A stretch of DNA of 32,000 bases from Candidatus Thorarchaeota archaeon (GTDB lineage: Archaea > Asgardarchaeota > Heimdallarchaeia > Hodarchaeales > Hodarchaeaceae): assembly GCA_048882505.1 (NCBI GenBank), contig JBHLRO010000001.1, positions 60,001 to 92,000 of the forward strand. The letters are read 5' to 3'. How positions within the stretch are numbered: the stretch's first letter is position 1; each line of letters starts with the position of its first letter. The notes under the pieces are model-generated. The model worked only from the letters and a program-made list of their open reading frames with translations, searched no databases and was not told the DNA's origin. Positions 8,950 through 16,599 of the stretch are shown here, piece after piece. The translations under genes were made by a program, and so were the position numbers.

Positions 8950-9405
8950 TTAAATGAGGTAAGGAATCGATTTTGGTTCTATTCCGAGGAGACGGTAATA
9001 AACAAGAATTTGGCCTCGATGTTGAATGGAGTGCTCCAACATCTCTAGGAGGAATGCTATTGCAGGTGCCGACTTGGCGGACGGTGAAATTGTTTTCATT
9101 GCATCTGCCGGAGTTATTTCAGCCAAAAAGGCCCTTGTCTTTTTCACCACTTCTTCATAAAGCATTTGAATGGCGTTAACATCGCTATACTTATTTAAAT
9201 TGTAAGATAGGGGTTCCCATTTACCCGTGGCTACCCCTCTTGAGTAGAATTCGAATGCACGAATCATATGTAAGATTATTTCGCCTAGGGGTCGGCCAGT
9301 ATCTACTGGTTTGGATTGGATATTTTCATCTGTAAGTTGCTTAAGTAAAATTCGAGTTTCATCAAAATGGCGGTCGACAGCTTCTAAAACGAGTTGTAAT
9401 ACCAT
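8950..9405 (-). CDS. DinB/YfiT family protein
   Basis: Metal-binding His pattern ILHM...LEHSIQHRGQILVYYRLLGIEP. Confidence 0.88.
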   Translation of the reverse strand: MVLQLVLEAVDRHFDETRILLKQLTDENIQSKPVDTGRPLGEIILHMIRAFEFYSRGVATGKWEPLSYNLNKYSDVNAIQMLYEEVVKKTRAFLAEITPADAMKTISPSAKSAPAIAFLLEMLEHSIQHRGQILVYYRLLGIEPKSIPYLI

Positions 9406-9455: not shown

Positions 9456-9980
9456 TTAAGTGTCTTTCTCAAAAGGCAACGCATATAATCTCTTCAAGAA
9501 CAATATCTGCCCAATGTGCATTGCTTCATGTTCAATAAGATGAAAAAGGATCCACTCAATGCTAAAATAAGCACTACTATCGGAGATTACAAGGCGGTCG
9601 AGGTCAGTTTCTTGAGGAATTTCCGCTAAAACCCTTTCTCGGACATCTGCGAGTTTTTTTACGTAATAGTCCTTTGTTTTTCCTTTTATCTGTGGTATAT
9701 TCACGCTGGGTCGCAAAGCAAAGGCATGTTTCCACTCCTCTTCCTCAAATTTCTCTCCGTAAATATCTTCAAATATCCAGGAGAATTCTATGGCGGCGAT
9801 ATGAAATAAGAGTGTGCCAATTGTTTCAATTCTCCGTTCATCGGGAGTAAAATCGATTGCAGCTTCATCTAGATCTTCAATGATTGTAATCAATCGCTGG
9901 CGTACTTCGTTCATCTGTGCAATCCATGTGGCCATACGAAGATCTAATCCTTCAGGCTTAGTGAGTTTAATTTGCTCCAT
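9456..9980 (-). CDS. DinB/YfiT (DUF664-like) family protein
   Basis: TIGTLLFHIAAIE...SIEWILFHLIEHEAMHIGQI. Confidence 0.88.
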   Translation of the reverse strand: MEQIKLTKPEGLDLRMATWIAQMNEVRQRLITIIEDLDEAAIDFTPDERRIETIGTLLFHIAAIEFSWIFEDIYGEKFEEEEWKHAFALRPSVNIPQIKGKTKDYYVKKLADVRERVLAEIPQETDLDRLVISDSSAYFSIEWILFHLIEHEAMHIGQILFLKRLYALPFEKDT

Positions 9981-10244: not shown

Positions 10245-11081
10245 TTAAATCTCCCCTTTTTGACAAGTAATAACGTAAAAAGTTCCTCTAGCGGTCCACC
10301 AAAGTTTAATGTTCTTGACATTAAACGGAAGGTCATCAAGGGGAGGTTTTGCAGAAAATAAGGTGTTCCATTTAAGAATGGATTCACCTCGGTGTGTTTT
10401 GCGTACCGCTGGTGAAAGACCTTCGTCAACGAAAACAAGTGTCCCCTCAGGTTTTAGCACTCGAACCCATTCCGTTAGCGTTCTTGGAATGTTAGAAAAA
10501 GTATTGATTCCTCCTGAGTGCGTAACTATATCAAACCTGTTATTTTTGAACGGAAGAGAGTGTACTTGCGAATGCAGCAACAGACTCTGAATCCCGCCTT
10601 TCTTAAACTTCTCAAGAGCCACCTGTAGAAATCCGATAGAAAGGTCGATCCCTGCCAATTTCAACTTTAAATTTGGATAGACTTGCTTTATCGCCAGATT
10701 CACATTTCCAGTTCCAACTGATACGTCAAGAATTGATTGATTTTGCTTAACAGGGAGGTGATCCGCAAGTTCTAGATAAGAGTCACGGAGGTGTGTATCC
10801 AGCTTTTCATTGTAGAATTCGAGTGCGGCATCATAGGATTCCGCACGTTGATCGTAATCAAATACCCATTTTGCATCTTCAGGGGAAATTTCACCACGTT
10901 CCACAAATCGTGGAATCTCATTAATGATCTGGAAGTTATGGGAATCGTTGTTCTCACATCGAATATCACTGGTTTTTCGTTTGAATTGCAGATTACCGCC
11001 GCATGTTGGGCATTGTAAATCGCTTTCAAAAGCCGATATAAGATCTAGCAAGAAAATCACCGATGTATGTCGTAACTTCAC
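10245..11081 (-). CDS. Class I SAM-dependent methyltransferase with an N-terminal Trm112/zinc-ribbon-like module
   Basis: LQCPTCGG...RCENNDSHNFQIINEIPRF, then ILDVSVGTG, GIDLS, LPFKNNRFD and WVRVLKPEG. Confidence 0.85.
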   Translation of the reverse strand: MKLRHTSVIFLLDLISAFESDLQCPTCGGNLQFKRKTSDIRCENNDSHNFQIINEIPRFVERGEISPEDAKWVFDYDQRAESYDAALEFYNEKLDTHLRDSYLELADHLPVKQNQSILDVSVGTGNVNLAIKQVYPNLKLKLAGIDLSIGFLQVALEKFKKGGIQSLLLHSQVHSLPFKNNRFDIVTHSGGINTFSNIPRTLTEWVRVLKPEGTLVFVDEGLSPAVRKTHRGESILKWNTLFSAKPPLDDLPFNVKNIKLWWTARGTFYVITCQKGEI

Positions 11082-11172: not shown

Positions 11173-12903
11173 ATGACGACCCTCGAACCGAGTTTCGAAT
11201 CACGAATCCCCTCGATTGAAGCAACGAAACTAGATCAATTCATTCAAATCCTTGAGATTAGTTTCATCTTTCTAATCTGTTTCACGCTTATAACGCTGGT
11301 TAATTCAGCCCTGTTTAAAGAAGTAATAGATTTGTATAGCCCTATCGCAGATGCGTTTCTAGGGGAACGTGATATTGGAAGTTTCAAAGGTGGCAATTTT
11401 GGAGTAATTGTAGAAATCACACTTGTGTTTAACGTTCTCTTGTTCTCAATTTCACTCTTCTTTGGTTTGTGGATTCGCCGATCACGGGACGGATGGTCTT
11501 GGAGTCAATTGGGATACACATATAAAACCCAGAAATATAATACCAGCAGTCTTCTAAGGCGTGCGATTATTTTAGGGGTCCTCTGTATTCTTGTTTTCTT
11601 TACTATTGTTTCACCATTGGTTTTCATCAATTCTCGGGGTGATCTTACAAAAACGTTCCTATTTTATGCCTACGAAGAGGGGGGCGTGTTGTTCACCCCC
11701 AATCAGTTAAATGCTGAATATTATTTCGGTTTTATCGAAATGGGTTTTCTTTGGCCATTATCTGCTGGGTTCTTCTTCTTCAGCTATGTTTATAATTCCT
11801 TTAAGGCCCGATTTTCCACAGGGGTGGCGAATTTGATCTCTACTGTCTTTTATGTAATCTATCTGATCTTTTTCTTTATGATTGACGAGCCAGATAAGTT
11901 GGTCCAGCTTCCCCAAGCCATGCTTGATCCGATCTTTTGGGGAAGGGCCATATCTTTCTTTTTTGTTTTGTATATTTCATTTAGTGCTTTTTCTGAGACA
12001 GGATCTGTGGTCTTGCCATTTACCCTTAATTTCGTTTTCAATGTTGGGCTTACCATAATAAGGGCCACCAATTCATTGATTTTTGCGTCCCTACCTACCT
12101 CTACTTACGTTTTTATGCTGATCCCTTACTTTTTACTAGTCTCAATAATCGGGTTATGGTTTGTTGTAAAAAAAGATGACTTTTCAACCATTAGATTAGG
12201 TGTTCAAGATTTCTTGACGGTTTTTAGGAAAAAATCAAGAAAGAATACCAGCCTGAAGTACTTAACTGGCATTACTATTCTCTTCTTCTTTATTTCGTTT
12301 TTCATACCAGGGACTCTTGAGCATATAGTTGCTAATCCTACTGCCTACCCTCCTGAGCTTTTCGCCTTTATCAATGCCGTCATATATGTTGTACTAATTG
12401 TTCTTGCCCTTGTTATCTTGAACTATTCGCCTACACAGGTATATGACGTTCTCATGGTAAAGCATCCCGAAGGCATCCCCATTGCTTCCAAACTGAGCTT
12501 TTTCCATTCTGATGAAGCCCTAATCTCTGGATATCTTTCGGCTGTCTCTAGTGTTTCGAAAGAATTGGATTCTGAAGACACCGAGCTACGATCGATCAAA
12601 CGCGGTGATCGGGAAATAATTTTGGAGGATGGTGTTTTTACCCGCGTAATCGCACTAGTTGATCGAGATCATCCTCGAATTCGGCATGGCATTATCGAAC
12701 TTCAAAGACGATTTGAGGGAACATATGCAGATACGTTAGCCTCTTGGATCGGGGATAGAGGAGTTTTTACTCAATCTGAGGACTTTATTGATAATATCGC
12801 CAAACTAGAGGTTAAATTTGATATCCCCCAGCAGGCTAGATGGTTAGCGGTTATTACGTTGCTTTTTACTCCGATCATGATTGCTTTAATAGGCATTTTT
12901 TAG
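11173..12903 (+). CDS. Polytopic membrane protein (about 10 TM, CPBP/Abi-like) + longin-like domain + C-terminal TM helix
   Basis: About 10 hydrophobic segments, then a roughly 125-aa soluble domain (DEALISGYLSAV...LRSIK...FEGTYADTLASWIGDRGVF) in the pattern of Asgard longin-like domains, then a final TM helix WLAVITLLFTPIMIALIGIF. Confidence 0.75.
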   Translation: MTTLEPSFESRIPSIEATKLDQFIQILEISFIFLICFTLITLVNSALFKEVIDLYSPIADAFLGERDIGSFKGGNFGVIVEITLVFNVLLFSISLFFGLWIRRSRDGWSWSQLGYTYKTQKYNTSSLLRRAIILGVLCILVFFTIVSPLVFINSRGDLTKTFLFYAYEEGGVLFTPNQLNAEYYFGFIEMGFLWPLSAGFFFFSYVYNSFKARFSTGVANLISTVFYVIYLIFFFMIDEPDKLVQLPQAMLDPIFWGRAISFFFVLYISFSAFSETGSVVLPFTLNFVFNVGLTIIRATNSLIFASLPTSTYVFMLIPYFLLVSIIGLWFVVKKDDFSTIRLGVQDFLTVFRKKSRKNTSLKYLTGITILFFFISFFIPGTLEHIVANPTAYPPELFAFINAVIYVVLIVLALVILNYSPTQVYDVLMVKHPEGIPIASKLSFFHSDEALISGYLSAVSSVSKELDSEDTELRSIKRGDREIILEDGVFTRVIALVDRDHPRIRHGIIELQRRFEGTYADTLASWIGDRGVFTQSEDFIDNIAKLEVKFDIPQQARWLAVITLLFTPIMIALIGIF

Positions 12904-14721: not shown

Positions 14722-16599
14722 GTGGCGGAAATTGAATTAGTTTTTCGATTTTTGTATGTCCTTGTCATTTTCATATCTTGTTTTCTGTATTTTGGAGCGG
14801 CATTGAGCGGTTTACGAAGCAAAGATTTGAAGAATGACACTCTTCTCTTATGGTATGTTGTTCTTCTTGGTACAGTGGGGATTGCACTTGTTTTGCTCTT
14901 GACTGAACAAATTTTGCTTGAGATATCGTTTCCTCTTGCTGAGTACCCCCTTGGCCCCCTCCCCGAGTTAGAAGATCAATTAATAGCTCAGATCGGGAGG
15001 ATTATTGTGTCATTTGCTATCTTCTTCTCTGGTATAGCCGTTCTTGCAAGTAATATGTTCGTCCTTCACTTCCTGGGACCGAAATTTACGAGAATCGGTT
15101 ACTTCGTGGCAATCTGGGAACTTTTGTACGTTTACTTTTATTTTACCTTGCCTTATATGTGGGTTCGCCGTCCTGATGTTTGGGAGTACTCACACCCTGG
15201 TTTTCACAGTTTTACTCTGTTTCTTTTCTTAATTCCAGTTTATACTAGCGTCCTATTCTTTATCATCTTAGTTATTCTAGTCATACGAAGAGAAGGGGTT
15301 CAATCAAGGAAACTTAGGGGTACTATATACTTTACAATTGCATTTACAACATTAGCGATCGGTTACACTAGTCAAGTTCTCTCTCCGAGCCTTTTATCCA
15401 TCTTATCCATCTCTATATTTCCTATACTTATGTATAGAACGTTTTCCATACCTCAGCTATTCGCTGAATACAGGTCGGACATTCTATCACTTGTGGAAAC
15501 ACCGATCGAAGAAAAAGAAGATATTCTGAGAGTCATATCAGAACAATCTCTCTTAGGCATCGCCATAATCCAAGATAATCGTGTTAAATACGTTAATGAA
15601 TCAATAGCAAGGATTAACGGCTATTCCATCGAGGAAATGATGACCTGGAAACTTCCGGATGATTTTACCAAAGGAATTCATCCCGAGGATCTAGAGTTTA
15701 GCATGGAGCAGGCCCGAAAAAAACAAACAGGGGAAGAACAGGGAATTGTTACTAATTACTCATATCGTCTTATAACGAAGGATGGGGGTATAAGATGGGT
15801 TGATCAATACTCAAAAACAATCAAGTTCGGTGGAAAACCTGCTGATTTCGTCACATTGATTGATATTACTGATCGGAAAGCAAGGGAAAAAGAATTTCAG
15901 CGGCTGCAAGAACTTTTTATCGCTATGACCTCCCATGAGCTTAGAACTCCAGTAACAGTACTTAATGGTTACACCGATCTAATTGAGAGAATTCTTGAAA
16001 ACGAACCTAACTCAATGGTAAAGTCACGACTTGAACAGATAAACCAAGTAATGAGGAAAAACCTCTTTAGATTAACTAGATCAATAAACTCAGTACATGA
16101 TACTAGTCGAATAAGGGCTGGTCAATTCGCTGTAACTTTGCAACCTGTTCCCTTTCCTAAATTCTACAGCGCCGTTCAGAAGGACATTAAACTTCTATAT
16201 TCGGATAGAGAAGTTTCAATTATGAATTCTATTGCGAATCCTGATGAGTTATCAATATTGGTTGATGAAGAATCGCTTATGCAGGTCATCCATAATTTGG
16301 TGAGTAACGCCGTGAAACATTCTCCAGAAACTAGCGCCGTGGAAATTTTGTTTTCACTGCAAACTGGGAGTTTCAGCATTACTGTAAAGGATTCTGGCTG
16401 TGGAATAGAGGAATGTGACCTCCCAACTCTATTCACGCCTTTCTTCCATAAATCATCAAAATATTCGTCAAAAGGAACTGGACTCGGGCTATATATTTCG
16501 AAAGCAATTGTAGATGCTCATGGAGGCGAGATTACTGTTCATTCGGAATTGGATGTTGGGAGTACATTTACCGTTCGTATTCCGCAAGTTATCAGTTGA
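14722..16599 (+). CDS. Membrane sensor histidine kinase (about 7 TM + PAS + HisKA + HATPase)
   Basis: H-box TSHELRTP, N-box NLVSNAVK, G1 KDSGCGI, F-box LFTPF and G2 GTGLGL. The PAS domain shows IHPED...YRLITKDG...WV. Confidence 0.93.
   Translation: MAEIELVFRFLYVLVIFISCFLYFGAALSGLRSKDLKNDTLLLWYVVLLGTVGIALVLLLTEQILLEISFPLAEYPLGPLPELEDQLIAQIGRIIVSFAIFFSGIAVLASNMFVLHFLGPKFTRIGYFVAIWELLYVYFYFTLPYMWVRRPDVWEYSHPGFHSFTLFLFLIPVYTSVLFFIILVILVIRREGVQSRKLRGTIYFTIAFTTLAIGYTSQVLSPSLLSILSISIFPILMYRTFSIPQLFAEYRSDILSLVETPIEEKEDILRVISEQSLLGIAIIQDNRVKYVNESIARINGYSIEEMMTWKLPDDFTKGIHPEDLEFSMEQARKKQTGEEQGIVTNYSYRLITKDGGIRWVDQYSKTIKFGGKPADFVTLIDITDRKAREKEFQRLQELFIAMTSHELRTPVTVLNGYTDLIERILENEPNSMVKSRLEQINQVMRKNLFRLTRSINSVHDTSRIRAGQFAVTLQPVPFPKFYSAVQKDIKLLYSDREVSIMNSIANPDELSILVDEESLMQVIHNLVSNAVKHSPETSAVEILFSLQTGSFSITVKDSGCGIEECDLPTLFTPFFHKSSKYSSKGTGLGLYISKAIVDAHGGEITVHSELDVGSTFTVRIPQVIS

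Follow-up and report, generated by a model that had tools for sequence, protein, structure and literature searches.

A candidate CPBP/Rce1-fold pseudoprotease joined to a predicted cytoplasmic longin domain in an archaeon of the Heimdallarchaeia

The 32,000-nucleotide stretch analysed here (hereafter the window; positions 60,001 to 92,000 of the forward strand of contig JBHLRO010000001.1, assembly GCA_048882505.1) comes from a Candidatus Thorarchaeota archaeon that is placed by GTDB in the family Hodarchaeaceae of the Heimdallarchaeia. It contains a gene for a polytopic membrane protein with an internal soluble domain, flanked by a divergently oriented UbiE-type methyltransferase gene and, downstream, by an aldo/keto reductase gene (Table 1; all positions are those of the window unless a locus is named). 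A word-indexed search of 5.8 billion proteins retrieved 67 orthologues, full-length or partial, with 42–90% identity and matching architecture, nearly all of them 560–600 aa long. A divergent clade of equal length at 25–31% identity came from an exhaustive phmmer search of 1.8 billion representatives and from a subsequent profile search. The open reading frame (ORF) is thus not a chance one. The named orthologues stem nearly all from metagenome-assembled genomes of Heimdallarchaeota, Hodarchaeales/Hodarchaeota or Kariarchaeaceae, with three rows labelled Odin-, Hermod- or Promethearchaeota. Comparison of the whole protein or its halves with Pfam, NCBIfam and PDB sequences gave nothing above noise, and the family profile likewise found no match among PDB sequences. 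The DNA of the locus also occurs in the sediment metagenomes of one study, and no RNA data set is listed for it.

Hydropathy and a full-length AlphaFold2 (AF2) model, built from an alignment containing 58 orthologues (predicted local distance difference test score, pLDDT, 80.5; predicted template modelling score, pTM, 0.78), agree on a layout of ten transmembrane (TM) helices (aa 19–416), a soluble domain (aa 418–550) and a last TM helix (aa 554–575). An earlier note, made by a model from the DNA letters and their translations, had proposed about ten helices before the domain, anchoring at both ends and a single terminal TM helix at nt 12841–12900; all three are borne out, the last by the hydrophobic tail at aa 554–575. 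Only about four residues separate the soluble domain from TM11, leaving no linker between them, and on its other side the domain follows a TM9–TM10 hairpin in which F371 and P379 are invariant. The linker between the eight-helix body and this hairpin (aa 333–360) carries nine lysine and arginine residues (K+R) in this protein, the family mean being 5.4.

The distribution of positive charge favours a cytoplasmic position for the soluble domain. Averaged over the 58 orthologues, the short loops hold 15.4 K+R on the predicted cytoplasmic side vs 5.3 on the opposite side, and the K/R-rich loops at aa 101–129 and 333–361 both lie on the same side of the membrane as the domain. On these positive-inside counts the domain is predicted to be cytoplasmic, and the extracellular location that the earlier note had named as fatal to its proposal was not obtained. 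Since the domain sits between TM10 and TM11, it would then be held against the inner membrane face by both of its ends. The domain is net acidic (family mean 16.8 K+R vs 23.0 aspartate and glutamate residues), as might suit an outward-facing surface module in an inverted topology. Such an arrangement is nevertheless barely credible in view of the approximately 3:1 positive-inside ratio for an N-in topology with a cytoplasmic domain, the location of both K/R-rich loops on the domain side, and the fusion of paralogous domains to cytoplasmic GTPases.

The fold of the soluble domain was derived from a domain-only AF2 model of aa 415–552, based on an alignment of 72 sequences (A2), among them homologous domains from other Asgard proteins. 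The model (pLDDT 91.3, pTM 0.86) shows the element order b1-b2-a1-b3-b4-b5-a2-a3, with strands at 7–16, 21–26, 60–63, 66–72 and 76–82 and helices at 34–51, 87–110 and 121–129 in the numbering of that model. This is the canonical longin order, lacking an N-terminal helix and ending in two C-terminal helices. In a Foldseek comparison with the PDB all of the best 50 matches were longin or roadblock domains (probability 1.00, E-values 2e-4 to 2e-3). The longin matches (Fuzzy, Mon1/Ccz1, Sec22b, Bet5, VAMP7 and AP sigma) aligned over 125–168 columns with TMq 0.55–0.67, and the roadblock matches over only approximately 80–90 columns. Superposition with VIA-align on 48,161 representative chains gave the same picture, with Z-scores of 10.7 for Fuzzy, 10.6 for Mon1-Ccz1, 10.2 for VAMP7, 9.9 for Bet5 and 9.6 for Sec22, and 106–132 residues aligned in these longin superpositions. 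The Lokiarchaeal longin 8yqg reached 8.7, and roadblocks scored at most 8.5 with alignments ending at about aa 520.

At the sequence level the corresponding signal is faint. The protein itself has no match to the Pfam families Longin, Fuz_longin_1, Intu_longin_1 and Sybindin, and its relatives stay below the curated thresholds of all four. The sub-threshold matches of family members fall within one clan (Robl_LC7, Fuz_longin_1, Intu_longin_1, Sybindin and Longin), with best E-values among relatives of 4.8e-4 for Fuz_longin_1, 1.3e-3 for Intu_longin_1 and 1.1e-3 for Sybindin, and the domain profile compared with PDB sequences gave weak matches only (Bet5, E 0.11; Roadblock3, E 0.25). Within the domain the family shares the signatures D..L.SGF..A and FE..Y...L..W.G. 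Divergence between the two clades is far smaller here than in the TM body, where identity is only 25–28%. The motifs that had first drawn attention to the region, D447-E-A-L-I-S-G-Y-L-S-A-V and F514-E...Y518...L521...W524.G526....F530, are both present, and the borders proposed in the earlier note (aa 423–547) lie at most five residues from those of the modelled domain. A homodimer prediction for the domain scored 0.36, the mark being 0.42.

Longin and roadblock domains are distinguished by the loss of the N-terminal helix and the gain of an extra C-terminal helix in the former (Tran et al. 2024, PMC10933270). A roadblock/LC7 (MglB-like) identity finds some backing in the sub-threshold Pfam Robl_LC7 matches of 12 of the 58 orthologues (best E 0.0023) and in the presence of Asgard Roadblock3 (9jue) among the best Foldseek matches, at 21–27% identity. 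However, the roadblock matches are limited to the b-b-a-b-b-b core (aa 419–520, 80–100 residues), whereas those to longins reach through both C-terminal helices. The N-terminal helix that packs on the sheet in the roadblock order a-b-b-a-b-b-b is also missing: TM10 runs directly into strand 1, so that no soluble helix precedes it. A roadblock identity is thus very improbable, and the modelled fold of the domain is assigned as longin with high confidence, as topology, Foldseek and VIA-align agree. The suggestion of a longin fold in the earlier note stands, and its converse, a domain that is neither longin- nor profilin-like, was not found.

For the TM body, Foldseek comparison of the full model with the PDB gave no match, and VIA-align was needed. 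Its best two matches among the 48,161 chains were Staphylococcus aureus SpdC (6u0o_A, Z 11.8, 229/248 aligned) and MmRce1 (4cad_C, Z 11.2, 235/251 aligned), both covering more than 90% of the target and spanning model residues of approximately 20–356. Independently, the ESM Atlas's own model of the protein matches a cluster that is 100% PF02517 (TM 0.75 by row, 231/250 residues aligned), and CPBP clusters rank 2, 3 and 5 by the language-model features of the Atlas. The best feature match, "dihydrodipicolinate synthase" (0.89), was treated as noise. Profile methods did not recover this relationship: the TM body has no match in Pfam, PF02517 detects 12 other genes of its genome but misses this one, and an hhalign comparison of the body with ten true CPBPs encoded in that genome returned a probability of 1.3%. 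When the 5.8 billion proteins were searched with a profile restricted to the TM body (A3), only family members were retrieved, full-length or cut by contig ends, with neither a stand-alone body lacking the longin domain nor a CPBP-annotated relative among them.

The three CPBP motifs were compared, column by column, between the 58 main-clade members (alignment A1), the divergent clade and the ten true CPBPs of the same genome, with the register being inferred from sequence and not from residue-level superposition (Table 1). At motif 1 the EExxxR pattern is replaced by A198-G199-F-F-F-F203 in all 58 main-clade members. At motif 2 (FxxxH) F226 is kept and the histidine position is occupied by an invariant Y230. 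At motif 3 (HxxxN) the main clade keeps N290 and has N286 in place of the histidine, and the spacings from T to P, from P to the histidine position and from there to N match true CPBPs exactly. In the divergent clade, which still shows an intermediate state, HxxxN and a single glutamate are retained. The TM body is consequently best read, on the model and on these motif columns, as derived from a CPBP protein whose catalytic Glu/Glu/His/His have been exchanged (EE to AG, H to Y, H to N); the motif 2 and motif 3 scaffold is kept and both motif-1 glutamates and both histidines are lost, and we regard it for this reason as a putative pseudoprotease. The ten-helix body, part of an architecture that the earlier note did not recognise and considered there as a possible sensor or transporter, would accordingly divide into an eight-TM CPBP/Rce1-fold pseudoprotease and a two-TM hairpin.

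Several positions of the TM body are strictly conserved: E189, M190, W194, P195, Y227, Y230 and N290 do not vary, and 57 of the 58 orthologues have N286. In the alignment the segment E189-M190-x3-W194-P195 is a family-specific feature. An assignment of motif 1 to the invariant E189-M190...W194 was considered and dropped, as alignment with the divergent clade and true CPBPs puts motif 1 at A198-G199. This degree of conservation exceeds the needs of a pure anchor and, together with the HxxxN and single glutamate of the divergent clade, would be compatible with an active intramembrane hydrolase that has a remodelled site (e.g. E189, Y230 and N286/N290) and whose longin domain recruits the substrate or regulates the activity. 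Against this, the main clade has other residues at every canonical Glu, His and His position (A198/G199, Y230 and N286), and the position of E189 is occupied by H, Y, F or Q in the divergent clade, so that E189 cannot be a shared catalytic residue. The genome, moreover, encodes no GTPase with a CaaX-type tail that could serve as a classical substrate. An active hydrolase is therefore improbable, and binding rather than cleavage is the most likely activity of the dead CPBP body. As regards the intact enzymes of the same genome, approximately 12 canonical CPBP genes with complete EExxxR, FxxxH and HxxxN motifs were found as PF02517 matches, several of them as adjacent pairs (e.g. L001/L002 on C5 and L005/L008 on C53), and L001 carries a Cys-rich, zinc-ribbon-like C-terminal tail.

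Table 1. Coordinates of the gene, its predicted parts and the GTPase-fused paralogues of its longin-like domain
Feature	Position	Strand	Residues or content	Basis and remarks
Whole gene	11173..12903	+	576 aa, stop codon included	ORF list and translation
CPBP/Rce1-fold body, eight TM helices (putative)	11227..12168	+	aa 19-332	AF2 helices, VIA-align, ESM Atlas
CPBP motif 1 (EExxxR), putative remnant, TM4	11758..11781	+	Main clade L-S-A198-G199-F-F-F-F203; both Glu lost	Own-genome CPBPs G..EE.x[FWY]R; divergent clade A-E-L-Y/F-F-F
CPBP motif 2 (SSxxFxxxH), putative remnant, TM5	11839..11862	+	S223-T224-V-F226-Y-V-I-Y230; main clade S223-T224-x-F226...Y230; His to invariant Tyr	Own-genome CPBPs SS..F...H.P; divergent clade L-L-V-L-Y
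CPBP motif 3 (RTxxSxxxPxxxHxxxN), putative remnant, TM6-7	11995..12042	+	Main clade E275-T276-G-S278...P282...N286...N290; His to Asn	Own-genome CPBPs RT..S...P...H...N; divergent clade H-I/V-T-V-N
K/R-rich linker with amphipathic helix, predicted cytoplasmic	12169..12252	+	aa 333-360	AF2 helix 334-351
Extra TM hairpin TM9-TM10, leading into the longin domain	12253..12423	+	aa 361-417	
Longin domain, predicted cytoplasmic	12424..12822	+	aa 418-550	Domain-only AF2, Foldseek, VIA-align
C-terminal TM helix TM11	12832..12897	+	aa 554-575	Conserved junction F549-D-I-P552-Q-Q554 before it
Arf-like GTPase and longin-like domain fusion, on C13	L034:287-1237	+	317 aa	
Arf-like GTPase and longin-like domain fusion, on C4	L035:293-1324	+	344 aa	
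Longin-like domain, Gtr1/RagA-like GTPase and about 140 further residues, on C6	L033:311-1774	-	488-codon open frame	

The distribution of the protein, which the earlier note had proposed to survey, was followed across 400 genomes of the phylum. Only part of Heimdallarchaeia yielded full-length relatives: apart from the genus itself, they occur in both genomes of a sister family and in two more families of this class, and one distant family has a match at 31% identity. By family label, matches outside the genus were obtained in f2, f5, f6 and f32. No full-length match was obtained with this query in two large families of the class (f4 and f7). The rest of the phylum gave domain-level matches only (aa 446–546, approximately), in ORFs of 400–2500 aa. 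Proteins of other Asgard lineages that combine six or seven TM helices with the domain showed no CPBP motifs by eye.

The longin-like domain itself belongs to a much wider set. The A2 domain profile has 39 matches in this genome, and among 80 homologues with other architectures a TM helix was found in 59, located at most 45 residues before the domain in 36 of these and only slightly further upstream in most others. A TM helix directly after the domain, as in the protein described here, was seen in 1 of the 80. The typical architecture consists of a signal anchor, an ectodomain of approximately 1000–1400 aa, a TM helix and then the domain; others place 5–12 TM helices before the domain, including a fusion to a major facilitator superfamily (MFS) transporter. 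This last protein (P0130, from an Asgard metagenome, 537 aa) has 12 TM helices and a C-terminal longin-like domain with a sub-threshold Fuz_longin_1 match (E 0.004). The receptor-like proteins form a large family in other Asgard genomes (P0092, P0096, P0111, P0116, P0128 and others; 1400–1900 aa), in which the order of N-terminal signal anchor, ectodomain, one TM helix and longin-like domain is followed by a tail of approximately 270–400 aa, and two such ORFs are present in this genome (1547 and 1553 aa, on C5 and C33).

Paralogous domains are also fused to small GTPases. In two paralogues of the same genome the N-terminal part is a GTPase of the Arf family (PF00025, E 5e-30 and 2e-32) and the C-terminal part a longin-like domain (hhalign to A2, probability 95.6%), and in a third frame, L033, the domain precedes a Gtr1/RagA-like GTPase; the first ATG, GTG or TTG of that frame falls inside the longin-like domain, reflecting either an unclear start or a frameshift. 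By analogy with these fusions, the longin domain of the polytopic protein may be coupled to small-GTPase signalling, as the earlier note had suggested. The genome encodes approximately 57 small GTPases of Ras-, Arf- and Rag-like type, and none of the 57 has a CaaX end or a cysteine within its last five residues. Prenyl-type anchoring of GTPases thus looks absent from this organism, judging from these C-terminal sequences, and a CAAX-processing role of the protein was rejected on the same count.

Longin domains bind GTPases or their regulators in Mon1-Ccz1, TRAPP, CPLANE and the Rag regulators, and the non-catalytic CPBP proteins SpdC, Abx1 and APH-1 act as anchors or binding scaffolds. The reading that we somewhat favour is that an eight-TM CPBP/Rce1-fold pseudoprotease, a two-TM hairpin, a cytoplasmic longin domain and a final TM helix together form a membrane-fixed docking platform. 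The longin domain would bind an Arf-, Rag- or Rab-like small GTPase, or another longin or roadblock regulator, and the platform would supply the membrane address that these archaeal GTPases, lacking a lipid-anchor signal, cannot supply. The dead CPBP body would be the anchor, and it might in addition bind a lipid or the TM segment of a partner. A more specific version takes the protein as the membrane-embedded receptor for one particular Asgard small GTPase that carries no lipid, or for the longin/roadblock guanine nucleotide exchange factor or GTPase-activating protein of that GTPase, and hence as an archaeal counterpart of Ragulator, Mon1-Ccz1 and TRAPP, the platforms from which eukaryotic GTPases take their membrane address, with the CPBP-derived cavity reading a lipid or peptide signal; in this specific form the proposal is distinctly unlikely.

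A number of observations weigh against the docking platform. The link between the TM body and CPBP proteins comes without support from hidden Markov model or profile–profile comparison and rests on the modelled fold and on short sequence motifs in register, and Z-scores of approximately 11–12 can arise from common packing in all-helical bundles. The invariant polar and aromatic residues (E189, M190, W194, P195, Y230 and N290) point to a specific site, which could be non-canonically catalytic. Not all roles of longin domains involve GTPases, and no partner of the protein was identified. Within the genus the distribution is patchy, a full-length match being found in 9 of the 21 other genomes (eight of them covering 98% or more of the query; in G065 only aa 253–574 are covered). 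Ten orthologous loci showed no conserved partner, with neighbours shared only between close relatives and no conserved GTPase among them; the neighbours are housekeeping or metabolic genes (methyltransferase, aldo/keto reductase, pyruvate kinase, acyl-CoA dehydrogenase, MFS transporter).

One neighbour bears on a different proposal. The window holds at 14722-16599 (+) a membrane histidine kinase with, by eye, approximately six N-terminal hydrophobic helices, a PAS-like middle part, an H-box (HELRTP) and a G2 box; it stands two genes downstream of the longin gene only in this genome and in a 90%-identical relative. The protein might be a scaffold of CPBP type whose task is to modulate some other membrane protein, for instance a histidine kinase or an enzyme of the cell envelope, with the longin domain only oligomerising or sensing a cytoplasmic cue and no GTPase being involved. 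Precedents for such modulating scaffolds exist in Firmicutes, namely Abx1 with CovS and SpdC with WalK and SagB. SpdC, the best structural match of the TM body, was solved in complex with the hydrolase SagB, the kinase gene lies nearby both here and in the closest relative, and many Asgard longin domains are fused to two-component modules (Liu et al., bioRxiv 10.1101/2020.10.19.343400). The kinase neighbour is, however, lost in all more distant orthologous loci, and the domain family is repeatedly fused to GTPases in the same genome, which makes a GTPase-independent scaffold an unlikely alternative to the docking platform. As to the remaining neighbours, the methyltransferase (10245-11081, minus strand, divergently transcribed, class I of UbiE/COQ5 type) is conserved only in the closest relative, and its N-terminus carries a CPTC...C...H pattern with the look of a small zinc ribbon. 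Two adjacent small ORFs of 151 and 174 aa (8950-9405 and 9456-9980, both on the minus strand) contain His-rich helices and appear DinB-like by eye.

Fuzzy and Inturned of CPLANE, Mon1-Ccz1, TRAPP Bet5/Trs23, VAMP7 and Sec22b share the b1-b2-a1-b3-b4-b5-a2-a3 fold and provide the best structural matches of the domain, but these eukaryotic longins have only 8–16% identity to it and are soluble or peripheral, whereas the present domain lies between two TM helices of a polytopic protein. Phytolongins are plant longin proteins without a SNARE motif that are N-terminally free, single-pass and tail-anchored, with a linker before the anchor. The earlier note had been reminded of them, and the likeness holds in so far as a longin domain is followed by a C-terminal TM helix with no SNARE motif between. 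The analogy is nevertheless a loose one, without evidence of common descent: the free N-terminal longin, linker and single tail anchor of phytolongins are not found here, where ten TM helices lie before an internal domain that passes into TM11 without a linker.

On the side of the TM body, MmRce1, a type II CAAX prenyl protease, shares the fold and has its motif 2 and motif 3 scaffolds in the same helices (TM5 and TM7) at the same spacing, but differs in that its catalytic Glu, His and His are replaced in the protein described here, whose gene is missed by PF02517 and whose genome is without a CaaX-tailed GTPase. SpdC resembles it in the eight-TM fold and in having lost the catalytic Glu and His while keeping that fold; Abx1 and the gamma-secretase subunit APH-1 are further non-catalytic members of the CPBP/Abi family. 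There is, however, no detectable sequence similarity to SpdC, and the present protein is archaeal and carries in addition a pair of TM helices, the longin domain and the final TM helix.

Longin and roadblock genes are very numerous in Asgard genomes, and their domains have been shuffled extensively (Liu et al., bioRxiv 10.1101/2020.10.19.343400; Tran et al. 2024, PMC10933270); 130 Asgard clusters of orthologous genes (asCOGs) of the Roadblock/LC7 superfamily have been described (Liu et al., bioRxiv 10.1101/2020.10.19.343400). The protein belongs to this lineage-specific expansion (e.g. the Lokiarchaeal Roadblock-Longin protein 8yqg, MK-D1 Roadblock3 9jue and the longin/roadblock asCOGs), shares with it the signature and the GTPase fusions of its paralogues, and departs from it by the fusion to a CPBP-type fold and by the TM helix directly after the domain. 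Full-text literature searches on CPBP proteins in combination with longin domains, and on CAAX processing and prenylation in Asgard archaea, returned nothing relevant, and no CPBP-fold–longin fusion was found described there. The protein is a new domain combination among many known Asgard longin proteins.

Asgard archaea possess dozens of small GTPases together with longin and roadblock proteins, and the route by which these reach membranes is unclear. A conserved polytopic protein that holds a predicted cytoplasmic longin domain flat on the membrane is a concrete candidate for an address tag for such GTPases. It would also add an archaeal case to the known theme of CPBP proteases turning into non-catalytic scaffolds. 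If no partner exists, the protein would be one more lineage-specific domain shuffle among those reported for Asgard longin proteins. If, on the other hand, the GTPase-receptor reading were true, a lineage near the eukaryotic root would have joined two folds which eukaryotes subsequently put to use in CAAX processing and GTPase control.

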